DNA of 64,000 bases, taken from NCBI RefSeq assembly GCF_947568905.1, contig NC_079164.1, positions 9,238,001 to 9,302,000 of the forward strand, written 5' to 3'. The translations under genes were made by a program, and so were the position numbers. Origin of the DNA: Ostrea edulis. Taxonomy: Eukaryota. The number at the start of each line of letters is the position of its first letter. The stretch's first letter is position 1. The notes beneath the pieces were generated by a model that was given only the letters and a program-made list of their open reading frames with translations, had not been told where the DNA came from and did not search any database. Below are positions 55,909 to 64,000 of the stretch, in pieces.

Positions 55909-56100
55909 AGTAGTATAACGCGTCCCGATAGGGAGGTCAACTGAGTGCACTTTTTATGCAAATGAGGTCAAGTAAGGGCGTTTTTGATTGGTCAAGCGGT
56001 GTTGGGGTCAACGGAGTGCACTAGGACGGGGTCAACCCCAGCAGGGGTTGTAGAGCGGGTGAATAGACTGGCCTATGGCCGCTGGTCTATGATGCGGTAC
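55909..56100 (+). promoter_or_regulatory. Putative terminal inverted repeat / replication origin of the Polinton
   Basis: Starts AGTAGT; contains ATGCAAAT (55956-55963), five GGTCAA and two GAGTGCACT. The right TIR is not in the window, so the extent is unknown. Confidence 0.6.
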
Positions 56101-56337
56101 TTTCGCTTTGAGTTCCTGGAATGAGTTCCTGCTATTTTTCTGAAAATCGGTATAAAATCCAGTGAAATCCTGTGTATTAAATCTAAAAGAATAACAGTGT
56201 ATTAAATCTAAAAGAATAACACAAGGTTTTAAGTTGACATGTTTATTAAAGAACAATGGTACAAGCATAGAACAATGCAAAACAATTCAATAAGCATAAA
56301 AACAGTTCAATAAGCATAACAGTTCAAGCACAGTCCA

Positions 56338-57255
56338 TTACTTTCTGCTGAGTTTCTTCTTCTTTTTTGGCCGTTCTTCAGTAGGTGCAGGTGGATTCCA
56401 CATCTCTAACGGTGTGTATTCTCTCTTCACAGGGGGTTTTGAGCCAGGTACGGGTCCAATCATCGCATCTATCTCCGCTTGTTCTTCTGGACACTCACTA
56501 ATCCAGTGTCCTATTTTTCCGCATTTGAAGCAAGGATCCTTTTGTTTGGTTTTCTTGCTGGTCTGTTGAGAATCTGCCGACCACGATTTCTTACTGGTCT
56601 GCGGATAATCTGTTTTCTGTGGGCAATCCGGCGACCAATGTCCTGTTTCTCCACACGTGTAGCACGGGTTAGCAGTGTAATCTGGAGTGTATTCCTTCCT
56701 AGGTTTTTTAGAAGTCAGGTCTTCCAGCTTCTTCAGTAGGATTGTGGTATGATTTCCAATCTCATTACTCAGCACATTAATGCGGTTAACGATCCCGTCG
56801 AGTGTCGTGGTAATGATGGCGAAATCGGTCCTGCTCATGGGGGAATCTTCTCCGCCGAAGGGGGGTTTATCGTATAAGCCCATCTCCAGTCCCGTAGCGT
56901 CCTGTGAATCGGGAAAATAGAAGCCTAATCCCGGGTCTGTCGGATTCTGGCTAGGGAGGTAATCCGAGGTCTGGGCCATCTTCACTTGTCGAGCAACGTG
57001 GTCTGAAGGCGTGAGATTGAAGCTCGTGGTCTGGTTCGAGGTCTGGGCCATCTTCTTCTCTTCTCTTCTTCTTTGAGCAACGTAGTCTGGAGACGTGAGC
57101 AAGAAGTTCGAGGTCTTCCCCAGTTCAGTCTTCTGATCGTCACTCTTAGCTTTCTTCAGTTCAATGTAGTCTTTCTGTGGCCCCATCTCCTTCTGTACCA
57201 GCTGATCTATTTTCTTCTGAGCTTTGTCCACAAATTCTAGTTGTTTCTGAGCCAT
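56338..57255 (-). CDS. Viral protein with two CCHC zinc knuckles, coiled coil and C-terminal basic NLS (305 aa)
   Basis: CYTCGETGHWSPDC and CFKCGKIGHWISEC; RPKKKKKLSRK; TATAAAA at 57314-57308 upstream and AATAAA (minus) near 56242-56247. Confidence 0.85.
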   Translation of the reverse strand: MAQKQLEFVDKAQKKIDQLVQKEMGPQKDYIELKKAKSDDQKTELGKTSNFLLTSPDYVAQRRREEKKMAQTSNQTTSFNLTPSDHVARQVKMAQTSDYLPSQNPTDPGLGFYFPDSQDATGLEMGLYDKPPFGGEDSPMSRTDFAIITTTLDGIVNRINVLSNEIGNHTTILLKKLEDLTSKKPRKEYTPDYTANPCYTCGETGHWSPDCPQKTDYPQTSKKSWSADSQQTSKKTKQKDPCFKCGKIGHWISECPEEQAEIDAMIGPVPGSKPPVKREYTPLEMWNPPAPTEERPKKKKKLSRK

Positions 57256-57540
57256 GTCTTCTGGAAGGTGATTGAAGATCGAATGAGGACTGACACTGGG
57301 GCTCCGCTTTTATAGCCAGCAAAATGTCTAGACTATTCTGTCTCGTGAGGGGCACGTGGGGAGCACGTGGTTGCATCATCTTTTTCTGGAAAAACCGGTT
57401 TCAGCTAGAACATCGCGCGACCAGCGCGTGCTAGTGCACTAATTGAACTTGAAAAGCCGGTTTCTCGCAACCAGCGCGTGCTAGTGCCCATTGGTACACA
57501 TTGACTTTAGTGGAATGGAACTTATATTGGTGTTTAAAGT

Positions 57541-57556
57541 AGCCCTAAAAAGGGCT
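57541..57556 (-). terminator. Histone-type 3' stem-loop (AGCCCT-TTTT-AGGGCT-AC) downstream of the Rep-like ORF
   Basis: Perfect 6-bp stem, 4-nt U loop, 19 nt after the TAA stop. Confidence 0.6.
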
Positions 57557-57575
57557 GTGCATGAAGTTTTTATTT

Positions 57576-58082
57576 TTAAAAATGGCCGGCTTCATACGCA
57601 GGTTCTTCTATATACACGTGTAAGTCATGATCTTCGGATATAATGTGTTGTACTAATTGTCGAGCTCTTCTCCCGGGGAAACGTATCTCTTCGACGGTTT
57701 CCCACATCCAGTGTGCATCCCAAAACAATACCCATACACTTCTCCGGTAACGTGGTTTCTCCAGTCGAATAAATCCCGATACTTTTTGAGTGCCGTTCAA
57801 TAACGTGTAAAACTGGTAAATCATGTACTGTATGAGGGGGGAATTTTTCAGGTACATGTCACTTAAACGCAGGTAAATATCCTCCACTGTTTCATGTGAC
57901 CGCAATACATAGTCAAAACACCAATTTTTAGATCGGCCCCAGCGTAATCGATGGCGACATCTCTGTACTAAATTGGCCCAGATCTCCATCTCGTCTACAT
58001 AATCTTCTACTATGGTTAAATTCTCCACTGGTTGTATTCCCTGGCCGCGGCGTCTCGCTCTTAAAATTCTCCGTGTATCCAT
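57576..58082 (-). CDS. Protein with degenerate CRESS-DNA virus Rep (HUH endonuclease)-like domain (168 aa)
   Basis: KNWCF (motif I-like) and IQYMIYQ...GTQKVSGFIRLEK......VWVLFWDAHW align by eye to nanovirus/circovirus Rep (IKYMVYQ...GTRHVQGYVEMK......MRGFFPGAHL). Confidence 0.6.
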   Translation of the reverse strand: MDTRRILRARRRGQGIQPVENLTIVEDYVDEMEIWANLVQRCRHRLRWGRSKNWCFDYVLRSHETVEDIYLRLSDMYLKNSPLIQYMIYQFYTLLNGTQKVSGFIRLEKPRYRRSVWVLFWDAHWMWETVEEIRFPGRRARQLVQHIISEDHDLHVYIEEPAYEAGHF

Positions 58083-58221: not shown

Positions 58222-58554
58222 ATGGGGGGCAGTGCTACTACGAGAATAAATGGATATAGTTATGTACTACAATGTATGAACGTGGCCTTACATAATCCTC
58301 ACATTCAAAATGCTCGTCAATTTGTACAACAGATGTCACCGGAGGTCAGAAATGTACATAGTTTTCAACGGATTGCTGATTCATTAGCGGAGAATACCAA
58401 TACGGGACGTTTACTCATGATTTATTTGTATGCTGAGGAATTGAAACAGAATCTTCCAGACCAGATGAGTGACATTGATCGGATCTTACGCGATTGTCTA
58501 CAAAAAGGATTCGTGGAACTGATTCGTATGAAAGGAATGGCTGCCCTGTTATAA
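58222..58554 (+). CDS. Viral Bcl-2-like protein, paralog 1 (110 aa)
   Basis: SFQRIADSLAENTNTGRLLMIYLYAEEL resembles BH1 (F..V..ELF....NWGRIV..F.FG..L); FVELIRMKGMAAL sits at the BH2 position. Confidence 0.65.
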   Translation: MGGSATTRINGYSYVLQCMNVALHNPHIQNARQFVQQMSPEVRNVHSFQRIADSLAENTNTGRLLMIYLYAEELKQNLPDQMSDIDRILRDCLQKGFVELIRMKGMAALL

Positions 58555-58591
58555 AACAAGAACGTTTTAGAATTTTTTCATTTTGATCATC

Positions 58592-58945
58592 ATGGCTGAA
58601 TTGACCAACAACGTTCTTACCGCTGTATTACAGCATTTCGAGGACTACAAAGAATCGGTGAACAACGCTCGTAGCGCTGCATTACGGTGTATCAAGGACT
58701 GGAAAGAAAAACAGCCGTTGAGATATAAATTCGCCATGAAGTTGTTGATCTTTTGGGAATTTCCTATGACCTTATATGAATATTCCAGCGTTTGCAAGCA
58801 TATAGCCGACAACCTGAACAGAGAGTCTGGATTGATCATGATTTATACCATGGACCAAGAATTTAGACGACGGGAACCTGAGAAGACTGGGGCGATTGTA
58901 GCGATTACCGATCACTGGCTGGAAAAGGTGTATAAAAAAACCTAA
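58592..58945 (+). CDS. Bcl-2-fold-like paralog 2 (117 aa)
   Basis: FPMTLYEY...GLIMIYTMDQEFRRREPEKTGAI..I...WLEKVYK is shared with paralogs 1, 3 and 4. Confidence 0.7.
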   Translation: MAELTNNVLTAVLQHFEDYKESVNNARSAALRCIKDWKEKQPLRYKFAMKLLIFWEFPMTLYEYSSVCKHIADNLNRESGLIMIYTMDQEFRRREPEKTGAIVAITDHWLEKVYKKT

Positions 58946-58973
58946 CCGTTTTCTTTTCCTTTATTCCTGGAGG

Positions 58974-59321
58974 ATGGCCAGCAGTGACAACATCGCAGAA
59001 AAAGCGCATAACCATGCATTAGAATGGGTGGAGAAAATGCAAGACGATACGGTGTTTCAAGCTGTTAAAAATTATCTGATAGCGGGGGTGTTTCCAATGA
59101 CTCTGGACGAATATACAGATCTACGGAACCATGTGTACATCAATCTCTATAACGATGCGGGGTTGATGTTAATTTATGTCGCGGGGGAGGAATTCAAGAA
59201 ACGCATGCCTGAAAAAACCGCCGAGATTGAAAGTATCACCAAGGACTGGCTTCGAGAAGTATACATAAAGTGTGAAGAACTTAATTCATTTCATTTATTC
59301 CCGGAGGATGGCCAGCAGTGA
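58974..59321 (+). CDS. Bcl-2-fold-like paralog 3 (115 aa)
   Basis: FPMTLDEY...GLMLIYVAGEEFKKRMPEKTAEIESITKDWLREVYIK. Confidence 0.7.
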   Translation: MASSDNIAEKAHNHALEWVEKMQDDTVFQAVKNYLIAGVFPMTLDEYTDLRNHVYINLYNDAGLMLIYVAGEEFKKRMPEKTAEIESITKDWLREVYIKCEELNSFHLFPEDGQQ

Positions 59322-59613
59322 CCACATCACAGAGAAAGCGATAGTTTATGTATTGGATTATCTCACAGACATTCATTCTGGGCAGTTTGAATTTGTGTTA
59401 CACTATATGCGAGAAGAATTATTTCCCATCAGCTTAAAGGACTATCCATGTCTCTGTCAGTATTTGATCGAGAACCGGATCACCCCGCAAGCCTTAGTAC
59501 TGATTCATTTAATGGGCCAGGAATTGAAACGAATTCGACCCACAGACAGAGCAGAAATCGAGAAAATCAGACTACGATGTCTTCGAGAGATGTACGTCAA
59601 GTTAAACGTGTGA
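59308..59613 (+). CDS. Bcl-2-fold-like paralog 4 (101 aa)
   Basis: Same MASSD N-terminus and 5' nucleotide context as paralog 3; FPISLKDY...ALVLIHLMGQELKRIRP...EIEKI...CLREMYVK. Confidence 0.7.
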   Translation: MASSDHITEKAIVYVLDYLTDIHSGQFEFVLHYMREELFPISLKDYPCLCQYLIENRITPQALVLIHLMGQELKRIRPTDRAEIEKIRLRCLREMYVKLNV

Positions 59614-59795
59614 CTTTTAATCTGGATCAAAATGAAGTGCATCTGTTACCCGAAGAAGACCGGACAAGTATCTGGATGACTGTAGCTGCTGATCGATATC
59701 GATTTCAACGCAGGATTCGAGAAATGGAAAAAATGTTGGACCCTATTTTAAAAAGACATGTGCATTGGTGTTGTGTGTGGGAGTTATGTATTTGA
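59577..59795 (+). CDS. DP71L/ICP34.5/GADD34-type PP1 regulatory subunit (eIF2-alpha dephosphorylation adaptor), 72 aa
   Basis: KRVTF (RVxF) followed by R..IW...AADRYRFQRRIREMEKMLDPIL, matching the PPP1R15 C-terminal motif (W...A.DR.RF.RRI...E..L...L). Confidence 0.88.
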   Translation: MSSRDVRQVKRVTFNLDQNEVHLLPEEDRTSIWMTVAADRYRFQRRIREMEKMLDPILKRHVHWCCVWELCI

Positions 59796-59814: not shown

Positions 59815-60351
59815 ATTGTTTACACGAAAGCTGTGTTTGGTTGAGTCTCTCAGAGAAGGGTTTATTTGTTGAGGAATCCAGAAAATCCTAAAGGTAGAGT
59901 GAAAATCGAATCAAATAAGGTGTTTTCTATCGAATAGACCTTATGAGATGTTGTTAGGGATGTACATGGTCGAGAAATAAATTTTTAAAGAGGGGGTGAA
60001 GAAACATTGAACCTCGACTCGACCTCTTTAACCGCTGTTTCTTTGAAAACTATGCGACGTAGCAAAATAAAAATAAGTTTAACGCATTCGCCGTCTCAGA
60101 ATCTATCAGATTAAATCTACCTTGCACAGATATCGAATGTCTAGAAAAAGACAATGAGAAAAAACTCTCTACTCGAAAGCACAAATCCGCCATTTTGACG
60201 GCCACCATCTTGGCTTCGTCTCCGAAGCGAGGGATGTTTTCGAGGAGGTCCGCGCTTTCCTGATATATACCGGCGCACTCGCCAGTTCGCTTCACTGGTG
60301 ATCCAGCACAGTTGTAGAAGATTTTTGAAGATTATTTAAGAAGAAAGAAGA

Positions 60352-61140
60352 ATGTCTGCAAGAAGAGACCCGCTCTACAATTTCCAGACCTTGCCTGGAT
60401 TCCGGTACCGGCTCCTAGTGGTGGCTGAGGAACGGGTAGGGGAGAATTGGGTCGTGCGTTCTGAGAACGACCTGAGCACCTTCTCCCCTTTCGACCAGAG
60501 TGGGGTCCGTGAGATCATCTGCCGGGTGCGGGCCGAGTATGAAGGGAGGGCACCCCGCCGCCGCACCGCTCGAATCTCCACGGCCACGAGACCGCGCCGA
60601 CGGGCCCCACAGCCACCCTCACCACCACCACCTTACTCCCCGGTGACGCCTACAACACCACCACCAGCGATCCCATCGGCACCAGTGGAATACAGCCCGG
60701 TGCCGATGAGCGACTCACCAGCGTCACCGGTGGAGTATTCACCGCGGTCACCGTCCCCCGCACCACCTCCCAGTCCAGCCCAGAGTCCGTCGCTGTTGGT
60801 GGCAGCCACGTCATCACCACCGAGACCAGCAGCCCCTGCAAGACCCCCACCACCTACCATCCGGTTTGCAGGGAGGACTCCACCACCGAGACCAACCCAC
60901 GCACCGGTGGCAACTCATCCCCCGAGGAACCACCCTATGACTGTCCCTGGCTGGGCAGATAGGGCGGTTCCCATCTGGTTTAAGTGTCCTGTCTGCTGGC
61001 AAGACAGGGTACACTCTGGAATTACGTGTAGGGGATGTGGGCAGCGCCCAGCTTGCTGCTCGTGCGTGGAAGAGTTACAGGAGCGGCGACACACCCGGGG
61101 ACGGTGCCCGTTATGCCGGTTTACCGGAAGCAGGGAATGA
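60352..61140 (+). CDS. Proline-rich protein with C-terminal C4C4 RING-like finger (putative viral E3 ligase), 262 aa
   Basis: C-x2-C-x10-C-x2-C-x5-C-x2-C-x13-C-x2-C; PPPY motif; TATATA near 60264 upstream. Confidence 0.8.
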   Translation: MSARRDPLYNFQTLPGFRYRLLVVAEERVGENWVVRSENDLSTFSPFDQSGVREIICRVRAEYEGRAPRRRTARISTATRPRRRAPQPPSPPPPYSPVTPTTPPPAIPSAPVEYSPVPMSDSPASPVEYSPRSPSPAPPPSPAQSPSLLVAATSSPPRPAAPARPPPPTIRFAGRTPPPRPTHAPVATHPPRNHPMTVPGWADRAVPIWFKCPVCWQDRVHSGITCRGCGQRPACCSCVEELQERRHTRGRCPLCRFTGSRE

Positions 61141-61162
61141 AAGTCGGTCCTTAGGACCAAAC

Positions 61163-61182
61163 GGCCCTTTTCAGGGCCACCA
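61163..61182 (+). terminator. Histone mRNA-type 3' stem-loop (CCAAAC-GGCCCT-TTTC-AGGGCC-ACCA) with downstream GAAAAGA
   Basis: Exact match to the metazoan replication-dependent histone stem-loop consensus, 22 nt after the RING-gene stop. Confidence 0.85.
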
Positions 61183-61290
61183 ACTTTTTTGAAAAGACAC
61201 TTTTTATGGCAAAAATCAAGAAACACACAAGTTTGTTTTAAAAAAGTTTTTATTAACACAAGTAATAGCTAGAATAAAGCTATAATAAAG

Positions 61291-61865: not shown

Positions 61866-62040
61866 GATTGAGAAAAATGGTAACAAGTGACCTATTTATA
61901 TAGTGTTTTTTGATGAGTCATCAACATGACGTCAGCCATCTGAGGTAGGGGATGTTTTCGAGGACGTCCGCGCTCTCGCCTTTTTAAACGAGCGCAACGT
62001 CAAAAATTGGGCATTCCGATTTTTTAAAGGAACCAGAACC

Positions 62041-62337
62041 ATGAGCCGTAGAGTAGGACCAGACCCTACAGTGAATGATTATTGTATCAAATGGGAGGAG
62101 GATTGGGAGCAAGAGATTGCCCCGCCGGCCTCACGGGAGGCTCTTCCCCCACCGCCCATGAGCCAGGATCTGCCCCCGCCAGAGGAAAACTGGGACGCAG
62201 AGTTAGAAGTGGTGCAACGGCCTCCGGGGAGATTGTTTTTTAAACACGGCTGGTTGCCCGTTTTTGTGTTTGACCACGAGCAACCCCCGGAGGAGCAGAA
62301 AAAGAAGAGAAGAAAGAAGAAGAAGAACAGACAGTGA
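62041..62337 (+). CDS. Small acidic/Pro-rich viral protein with C-terminal basic NLS (98 aa)
   Basis: Good ACCATGA start, EEDWEQE and EENWDAE motifs, KKKRRKKKK; shares its upstream element and 3' stem-loop with the RING gene. Confidence 0.65.
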   Translation: MSRRVGPDPTVNDYCIKWEEDWEQEIAPPASREALPPPPMSQDLPPPEENWDAELEVVQRPPGRLFFKHGWLPVFVFDHEQPPEEQKKKRRKKKKNRQ

Positions 62338-62434
62338 GGGGGACCGAGAAGAAAAGAAGAAGAAGAGAAGGAGAAGAAGGAGAAGAGAGAAGAAGAAGAA
62401 GAGAAAAGACCAAGAACAGAGAGAGAAAGAAAAC

Positions 62435-62455
62435 AGCCCTTTTCAGGGCTACCCA
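62435..62455 (+). terminator. Histone mRNA-type 3' stem-loop (AAAC-AGCCCT-TTTC-AGGGCT-ACCCA) with downstream GAAAAGA
   Basis: 6-bp stem with A-U closing pair, TTTC loop, ACCCA tail. Confidence 0.8.
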
Positions 62456-62557
62456 TTCTTTTTGAAAAGACATGGTTGATTACAATGACAAGAAAATTTT
62501 TTTTTTTTTTCCAACGTTTTATTAAACTCCAACTATGAACAATAACAATAACATAGT

Positions 62558-63055
62558 TTACAATACATTCAGTCTTTGACATTGACAAGTTTGTCCTTGA
62601 TGGGTTCTCGGTTTACGGAAGGTCTCTTTAAACCAATCCGCCACAAAACGATCGCGTTGTAAGGCTGTGCCTTTCCAGGGAAGTAACCATTCTCGTACGG
62701 TGCTTCTATGGCGATGGCGTTGATGTAAAAAATACACACAGTATTGTCCACAGACATCCGTATTCAAATCTTGATAACAATGGGTGTTATGAATCCAAGT
62801 CTCTCCGTGGCGTTGAATAAAGTCTTGGATGTCTTTATGGCTGGGAGGTAATCCGTAAGAATCAAAATATTCGACGGTAGGGCTACTCAAATACAAACAG
62901 ACCCAATGCGCTCCAGGGCGATCGTGAGGGTCTGTATTCACCACGATGGCTTTGTGATGAGGTAACAGCTCAGGTATGACATCTCGAGGATACACACCTG
63001 CAAACGCCGGTCCTAAATCTCGTTGTAAAACATCTCTCAATTGCTGAGTATCCAT
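62558..63055 (-). CDS. Adenain-like (C5 family) cysteine protease, Polinton maturation protease
   Basis: GVYPRD, IVVNTDPHDRPGAHWVCLY (catalytic His), EYFDSYG (Asp), YQDLNTDVCGQYC (Gln/Cys). Confidence 0.92.
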   Translation of the reverse strand: MDTQQLRDVLQRDLGPAFAGVYPRDVIPELLPHHKAIVVNTDPHDRPGAHWVCLYLSSPTVEYFDSYGLPPSHKDIQDFIQRHGETWIHNTHCYQDLNTDVCGQYCVYFLHQRHRHRSTVREWLLPWKGTALQRDRFVADWFKETFRKPRTHQGQTCQCQRLNVL

Positions 63056-63062
63056 CTCTCTC

Positions 63063-64000
63063 TTAGTAATCGATACTGACTTCTCGTTGTTTGTTGATTT
63101 CTAGCAGATTGTCGAACACGGCATACACCACACAGTTTAAGGTCCTGGCTACGTTGGCGGCAAATTGCACTTCCACTCTCAAGTTCCCCGTCTGTATGAG
63201 ATGAAATTTATCCGTCTGGGCTTCTTGATCTTTCGTGAAATCCACACACCAGAGGGTGTAACCGTTTTTATACTCTTCCAGGGTAATGTCCGGAGCCCAG
63301 TCCTGACCTAATTTTCCCAAGCCTTTGTACAGACTCAAATACGATCTCAGGTACTGATCGTCGGTGAAATTAGGTTCCAAAGGTCGGGTTTCCATCATTT
63401 CTCCATTGATACTGATTTCTAATTTCTTGACTCTCTCATTTTGGAAATGAAAGGGGTTTCTGGTATTATCCCCATTAAAAGCCGCATTGTCCACAAAGCC
63501 CAACACGATCAGTTTAGGCATCTGTCCTTGAAACAGATGATCGGTGATTTTAGATTGGGTGCCACTAGGAATGGTGAAGGTTTTCACTTCCACTCGTCTC
63601 AATGGATATTTCGCCGTTTGAGTACTCAGTTGCTGATTGATGAGATTAATGATACTCGGCACAGGTTTGACTTTCCTCACCCACAAGATCATACTTTGAA
63701 TGGCCACTTTCCCACTACTCCCGGCAGCGGTCATCATGTAGAACTGGGGTCGAGCGCGATTGAATCGGAGACGGACATCCAAGCCATTAGGGAGACATTT
63801 CTCTTGCTCAAACAAATCCAGATGTAATCGATCCATCAACACGATCTCCTTACTGTCTGTAATCTTCTCGTGACGTTTTCTCAACCCTACATTCTTGGAA
63901 TCATCCGGATACTCGGGAGTCGGAATGACGGCCGCGATGCTGATTTTGTTATTCACTACTGGAAATTCCACAGGAGTTTGAGCCAGATCTTCTAATTTGA
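63063..64000 (-). CDS. Polinton/adintovirus major capsid protein (double jelly-roll), C-terminal part; frame open to the window edge
   Basis: [16 protein letters not shown]...[30 protein letters not shown]...[20 protein letters not shown] are Polinton MCP-type motifs; adjacent to the protease gene. Confidence 0.85.

Follow-up and report, generated by a model that had tools for sequence, protein, structure and literature searches.

A histone H1-type hairpin behind a Rep-like gene of a Maverick element in Ostrea edulis: a possible SLBP site that lacks the histone downstream element

In this study, we have examined a hairpin that follows a Rep-like gene in a window of 64,000 nucleotides (nt) of Ostrea edulis DNA, that is, the whole stretch analyzed (assembly GCF_947568905.1, contig NC_079164.1, positions 9,238,001 to 9,302,000 of the forward strand). 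The gene belongs to an endogenous Maverick of 19,732 bp, which extends from window position 55909 to G000:C1:9313640 and carries in its left arm this hairpin and two further stem-loops, each behind a sister gene. The hairpin reads AGCCCT-TTTT-AGGGCT (57556-57541, minus strand), is followed by AC, and begins 19 nt past the TAA (57578-57576) of a 168-amino-acid (aa) Rep-like open reading frame (ORF). The features around it are as follows.

57576..58082, minus strand: 168-aa ORF, weakly like the CRESS-virus Rep endonuclease (PF02407), with no H1-type promoter element in the 400 nt upstream
57569..57574, minus strand: AATAAA, candidate poly(A) signal, 12 nt upstream of the stem
57541..57556, minus strand: hairpin with a 6-bp stem and a TTTT loop; its 18 nt including AC equal the host histone H1 stem-loop
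57521..57527, minus strand: slot of GAAAAGA in host histone genes, here with other letters (best match 5 to 40 nt past the stem, 6/11)
57377..57386, minus strand: GAAAAAGATG, 154 nt past the stem, part of the promoter block of the next gene and uncoupled from the hairpin
57307..57314, minus strand: TATA-like box of the downstream zinc-knuckle gene
56338..57255, minus strand: 305-aa gene with two CCHC zinc knuckles

A first-pass annotation had described a histone-type stem-loop in the transcribed orientation, and its letters, strand, and distance from the stop were verified. The host H1 genes (Linker_histone, E values of 3e-29 and 1.6e-27) end in AGCCCT TTTT AGGGCT AC, which is the window hairpin letter for letter. 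The 18-mer formed by stem-loop and AC has 99 matches in the genome, 15 of them in histone clusters (three were retrieved and the H1 ORF was read in two, the others being placed by position). One more follows a solitary H1 gene, and the remaining 83 fall at Rep-like loci, assigned by by-eye comparison of locus listings. In this animal host, the histone genes form clusters, with about 20 repeat units (19 full H3 matches), and the genome also encodes an SLBP domain gene. The distance of 19 nt between stop and stem is histone-like (27 to 47 nt in host histone genes). Chance does not explain the three stem-loops of the window: RGCYCTTTTNAGRGCY is matched 3 times there, whereas 100 shuffles gave an expectation of 0.03, and genome-wide this pattern had 538 matches, compared with 5 for its reversed control. 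In the host H3, H2A, and H4 genes (L063-L092 and L218-L220) the stem is GGCCGT/ACGGCC, a compensated change at pair 5, and in H2B it is GGCCCT/AGGGCC.

Against the histone stem-loop family of Rfam (RF00032), the hairpin at 57541-57556 scored 22.3 bits (E value of 0.11), which does not reach the gathering score of 34 bits and is the lowest of the three (40.2 bits for the sister stem-loop at 61158 and 32.0 bits for that at 62430); a host H1 end scored 33.3 bits and a host H3 end 36.5 bits. The earlier view that this hairpin is the weakest of the three stands, but not the TTTT loop as its cause: since host H1 carries both the TTTT loop and the A-T closing pair, neither is a defect. Like a histone stem-loop, the hairpin has a 6-bp stem and a 4-nt loop with the histone consensus, including a G at stem position 2, a TTT loop, a T-A top pair, and a 3' A, and it lies on the sense strand shortly past a stop codon. 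Unlike one, it follows a nonhistone gene in a mobile element, has an AATAAA upstream of it, lacks the downstream element, and has a 5' flank (TGCAC) with a single A. Its actual deficits are the missing downstream element, the TGCAC flank, and the lack of a histone promoter element upstream of the gene.

The Rep-like gene occurs in the genome in forms that are 46 to 47% identical to that of the window, and 80 loci were read unfiltered in a survey of its subfamilies. In subfamily A, the hairpin is accompanied by the TAAACACC block. Subfamily A' has a gene and hairpin near those of A and a different downstream region, whereas subfamily B combines a diverged gene, a CA repeat, and a hairpin with a TTTC loop with the downstream block of A, the likeness between A and B beginning two bases before the stem. 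The hairpins of B and A' scored 26.9 and 18.2 bits, respectively, with RF00032. The hairpin is kept in A, A', B, and D (one copy of B has lost it through a deletion, and two B copies are truncated) and is missing in C. A and B, which differ upstream, have the hairpin in common, and so do A and A', which differ downstream.

In the host H2A, H2B, and H3 genes, the stem-loop is followed by GAAAAGA at exactly 13 nt in 11 of 11 distinct ends, and H4 and H1 also have their downstream element at 13 nt. Scored against the commonest 11-nt host element, with 5000 random stretches of the Maverick as background, host ends match 9 to 11 letters and both sister cassettes match 9; the window hairpin matches 6, which is the background mode. 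The first-pass annotation had found no clear GAAAAGA after the stem, and there is indeed none at the host distance. Genome-wide, GAAAAGA stands 8 to 18 nt downstream of 397 of the 538 pattern matches (controls, 0 and 5), and the hairpin is followed by TAAACACCAATATA in the GAAAAGA slot at 94 places (control, 0); the downstream element is found in none of the hairpin-bearing rows among the 80 surveyed loci. The distance from hairpin to downstream element is critical for processing according to PMC1635294. The window hairpin has the build of an SLBP site, but because the downstream element was tested for and is not there, we do not class it among the histone 3'-processing signals.

A true histone-type 3' end would require that the U7 small nuclear ribonucleoprotein cut through a weak local element or through GAAAAAGATG, folded near from 154 nt downstream. 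The identity of the hairpin with host H1 and the two complete cassettes of the same Maverick speak for such an end, as do a GAAAA(A)GATG motif that recurs behind the hairpin, 154 nt away in the window and 110 to 216 nt away in copies of B and D, and a 241-nt region whose predicted fold was better than that of all 200 shuffles (z of -3.63). However, the local match is at background level, the distance of the motif varies twofold, the motif itself is paired in the predicted fold, and that fold may stem from palindromic promoter motifs. A displaced downstream element acting at a distance was ruled out, as the motif persists in four hairpin-free copies (L176-L179) and is missing behind the hairpin of A'. 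Upstream, the best matches to the H1-type promoter element within 400 nt of the Rep-like gene are 12, 12, and 13 of 24 nt in A, B, and C, where the background mode is 12. Searches of the host genome for a U7 small nuclear RNA gene gave nothing above the cutoff with RF00066 (best E value of 0.93) and, with a pattern that joins the host downstream element to an Sm site, 5 matches against 6 in the control and no convincing gene. Since the downstream and promoter elements are missing and the gene of subfamily C is hairpin free, U7 cleavage at the window hairpin is unlikely on these sequence grounds, and we give this explanation a low probability.

We favor, at a probability of roughly 0.45, the explanation that the hairpin is half of a cassette and serves as an SLBP site on a polyadenylated mRNA rather than as a histone-type cut site. 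It can be envisioned that a full histone-type 3' cassette, taken from host H1 or from the second cassette of the Maverick, came to lie behind the Rep-like gene and that the promoter block of the next gene then took the place of its downstream element. Cleavage, set by the AATAAA, would occur at the hairpin or just beyond it, and the mRNA would be polyadenylated; the hairpin would stay near the mRNA end and bind SLBP without U7 cleavage, and the bound SLBP might bring the mRNA in part under the controls known from histone mRNAs (of export, translation, or S-phase turnover). The alternative is a neutral relic, in which a copied cassette lost its downstream element and the hairpin merely travels with the promoter block of the next gene; being shared sequence, it may serve only as a crossover point between subfamilies. 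We consider the relic less probable than an SLBP site.

Speaking against a relic, the hairpin has been retained through A, A', B, and D despite the exchange of both flanks. We compared 71 hairpin copies; these were selected for 12 or more matching positions out of 16 and for the absence of GAAAAGA, so that they are no test of that absence. The sole subfamily-wide change in the hairpin is at loop position 4 (T in 42 copies, C in 28, and A in 1), a free position at which the host and sister cassettes vary as well; other changes occur only singly or doubly. Columns with shared variants number 2 of 16 in the hairpin and 32 of 60 downstream (Fisher p of 0.003, or 0.17 with 2 of 16 versus 17 of 60 when six A' copies are left out; both values are rough, the columns not being independent). 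In an A'-type contig from another run, the differences listed, 4 of 11 differing letters, all fall between stop and stem and none in the hairpin. Taken together, these comparisons suggest constraint on the hairpin.

Several observations weigh against an SLBP site, most of them in favor of a relic. In subfamily C, the hairpin is absent in 13 of 15 loci, which have the TATA box of the next gene 42 to 61 nt past the stop (1 of the 15 is misregistered and 1 truncated). No compensatory stem change was seen in any of the 71 copies, the contrast in shared variants fades without A', and the contig comparison covers only part of the differing letters. A and B are nearly identical over a long stretch, and the hairpin makes up no more than its first 16 nt. 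For SLBP, PMC10388802 gives as requirements a G at the second stem position together with two adenines on the 5' side and one on the 3' side; the G and the 3' A are present in the window, whereas its TGCAC flank has one A where B has AAAAC, and a loss of 5' adenines in A would suit a relic. AATAAA is not kept either: B has an ATTAAA that overlaps the stop, at a variable distance from the stem because of the CA repeat. In addition, poly(A) cleavage occurs 10 to 30 nt past AATAAA, and the cut could thus land inside the hairpin. Tandem duplications of the hairpin region were seen in three copies (L106:4798-4845, L162, and L135), and in the old copies L106 and L162 the hairpins have decayed, which favors a relic.

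The AATAAA had been reported to overlap the stop region; it lies at 57574-57569, one base beyond the stop codon, with no overlap. A stem can bring such a hexamer closer to the cleavage site, and the hairpin might merely aid polyadenylation in this way, its likeness to H1 reflecting only its origin. Consistent with such an aid, the hexamer precedes the stem by 12 nt, and CA dinucleotides and a GTGT-rich stretch lie downstream. We regard this explanation as very unlikely, since any stem would suffice and yet the histone sequence has been kept, and the distance from hexamer to stem varies by about 50 nt in B. A stem-loop and an AAUAAA within one 3' region are also known from human H2AC18 (PMC9756948). 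There, the AAUAAA follows the stem-loop, in overlap with the downstream element, and the gene makes use of both routes; in the window, the AATAAA instead precedes the stem, and there is no downstream element.

The first-pass annotation had argued that independent placement of the hairpin behind an unrelated gene points to selection rather than to one duplication. All three stem-loops lie in one mobile element, and the gene of subfamily C has none. The argument fails because 19 of 20 nt agree between the window hairpin and its sister at 62433-62452 and the hairpin of subfamily B shares 22 nt exactly with the sister cassette at 62435, an identity that also suits a relic. Duplication or conversion inside the element is as open an origin as the capture of a host H1 end. 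The A-T closing pair was considered as Maverick-specific proof of internal duplication and was dropped, since host H1 has the same pair.

The protein encoded upstream of the hairpin matches PF02407 with an E value of 0.015 (16 bits, under the cutoff of 26). Its structure model has a low predicted local distance difference test score (47), and in a fold search this low-confidence model matched 9pqf, a viral Rep endonuclease domain, at a Z score of 6.2 (root mean square deviation of 3.5 over 102 aligned residues), tied with an unrelated ribosomal chain (6.5) and followed by other HUH domains (5.2 to 5.8). Its weak likeness to CRESS Rep endonucleases consists of a weak profile match and of several HUH structures among its top fold matches; it differs from them in falling below the cutoff, in lacking the helicase part, and in not conserving the catalytic positions. 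At the places where the HUH motif and the catalytic tyrosine would be expected, the window protein has other residues. Searches of PDB sequences and of the Atlas (best value, 0.77) returned nothing useful for it. Outside the host genome, relatives amounted to 1 close protein and 6 representatives at E values up to 0.001, which came without DNA context, and no related loci were found in viral or metagenome contigs. In IMG/VR, a half-stem plus GAAAAGA pattern had 25 matches; six stem pairs were present in only 1, which included two G-T pairs.

Judged from its sequence and the model, the 168-aa protein is likely a noncatalytic Rep derivative, and it is therefore improbable that the hairpin acts as DNA, as a nicking origin for this protein. 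The place of the hairpin next to a Rep-like gene speaks for such an origin. The substituted catalytic positions, the gene of subfamily C that persists with no hairpin, and a 4-nt loop that lacks the nonanucleotide of CRESS origins speak against it; the exact identity with H1 and the strand suit an RNA signal, and we consider a DNA origin hardly credible. Subfamily C also has a second short ORF (L105:8220-8552, minus strand; L103:2416-2748, plus strand), Rep-like by eye and with no Pfam match, that converges on the second cassette.

The two sister genes carry complete histone-type signals.

60232..60255, plus strand: H1-type promoter element of the first sister gene, 23/24 nt as in host H1
60352..61140, plus strand: first sister gene, 262 aa, proline rich with a cysteine-rich C terminus, no Pfam match
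61163..61197, plus strand: sister cassette 1, stem-loop, 12 nt, GAAAAGA
61950..61973, plus strand: H1-type promoter element of the second sister gene, 22/24 nt as in host H1
62041..62337, plus strand: second sister gene, 98 aa with a basic C terminus
62435..62470, plus strand: sister cassette 2, stem-loop with an A-T closing pair, 13 nt, GAAAAGA

Each sister gene thus has three histone-type parts (promoter element, stem-loop, and downstream element), compared with one of three for the Rep-like gene, and both cassettes have the downstream element at the fixed distance of replication-dependent histone 3' ends. The 24-nt element upstream of host H1 recurs with 21 to 23 of 24 nt at the equivalent sister sites in subfamilies A', B, and C; host H2B matches it in 18 of 24 nt, and the promoter pattern has 314 occurrences in the genome against 0 for a control. 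Complete units, with the downstream element in host register, are present in subfamilies A, A', B, and C, and the spacer between stem-loop and downstream element varies in sequence by subfamily while its offset stays at 12 to 14 nt. A GGTCCG-containing element lies upstream of host H1, H2B, and both sister genes and is, by its core sequence, putatively the H4 box. The H4 box (H4 site II) of H1.0-type promoters is treated in PMC6027317, the available text of which gives no letters; unlike the genes with that box, the Rep-like gene has no such element upstream. At L226, L227, and L228, the Maverick-type promoter element occurs outside the usual gene order, with two near-identical loci and a stem-loop on the opposite strand.

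The 397 genomic sites with stem-loop and GAAAAGA compare with about 20 histone repeat units, and only H2B and H1 fit the pattern; most of these sites must therefore lie behind nonhistone sequences. A multicopy 207-aa ORF (L108:5989-6645, plus strand; L222; L224) with a weak likeness to GDSL/SGNH proteins (E value of 2.3e-5, below the cutoff) has a complete stem-loop and downstream element 17 nt past its stop. In a clustered family of 127- to 137-aa genes with no Pfam match (L107 and L110; G000:C1:47.36-47.39 Mb and 11.78-11.81 Mb), each gene has both parts about 100 nt past the stop, and at L109:3867-5030 (minus strand) a Tc1-like DDE transposase remnant is followed by a complete stem-loop and downstream element.

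The carrier has the size (15 to 25 kb), terminal inverted repeats, and 6-bp target duplication of Mavericks. It encodes a protein-primed DNA polymerase (DNA_pol_B_2, E value of 6.6e-32), an integrase (rve, 1.3e-10), an A32-like ATPase (Pox_A32, 5.4e-7), and an IAP-like protein. For the region around the hairpin, the genome holds 132 candidate places; 40 of them were scored, and these are 99 to 100% identical. Further features of the Maverick in the window are as follows.

55909..56264, strand not assigned: left terminal inverted repeat, 356 bp, 95% to the right end, with a 6-bp target duplication
62558..63055, minus strand: adenovirus-type protease (Peptidase_C5, E value of 2.9e-4, 21.0 bits against a cutoff of 21.3)
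63063..64000, minus strand: 3' part of a 465-aa gene, candidate major capsid protein, no Pfam match in the 311 aa scanned

The 465-aa gene is presumed from its position to encode the major capsid protein. Four short tandem ORFs at 58222-59613 (plus strand) are partly paralogous, the first having a weak Bcl-2 match (E value of 0.0066), and an ORF at 59448-59795 has a PP1-binding region (E value of 1.9e-5); together with the IAP-like gene, the sequences of these ORFs suggest a host-modulation block. Elsewhere in the window, 11562-11884 is a long imperfect inverted repeat, possibly a miniature inverted-repeat transposable element (weak Rfam microRNA match).

The inverted repeats, 6-bp duplication, protein-primed PolB, rve integrase, A32-like ATPase, and adenovirus-type protease are those of the Mavericks, Polintons, and adintoviruses as described in PMC8502044. 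Unlike the elements described there, this Maverick has accessory genes with histone-type promoter and 3' elements, and the words "stem-loop" and "polyadenylation" occur 0 times in that paper. Histone-type 3' ends in Mavericks, viruses, or transposons were not found among the matches listed in the literature searched, which leaves most subscription journals outside.

The complete histone-mimic units of the sister genes, as read from sequence, are a stronger and more surprising result than the window hairpin, and the argument from selection fits these two cassettes much better than it fits the hairpin. By itself, the hairpin is only moderately interesting, as it may be no more than a relic. Within one Maverick family, however, it provides a natural control, with complete cassettes behind the sister genes, a half-cassette behind the Rep-like gene, and none in subfamily C; the action of SLBP on an mRNA that U7 cannot cut is therefore directly testable. 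A broader explanation, which we put forward tentatively and with the odds somewhat against it, is that this Maverick family took over the replication-dependent histone expression of its host, the sister genes being full mimics and the third hairpin a selected SLBP site without U7. If so, the sister mRNAs would be nonpolyadenylated and coupled to S phase, and nonhistone genes with a histone promoter, stem-loop, and downstream element would give a DNA element ready-made S-phase expression.
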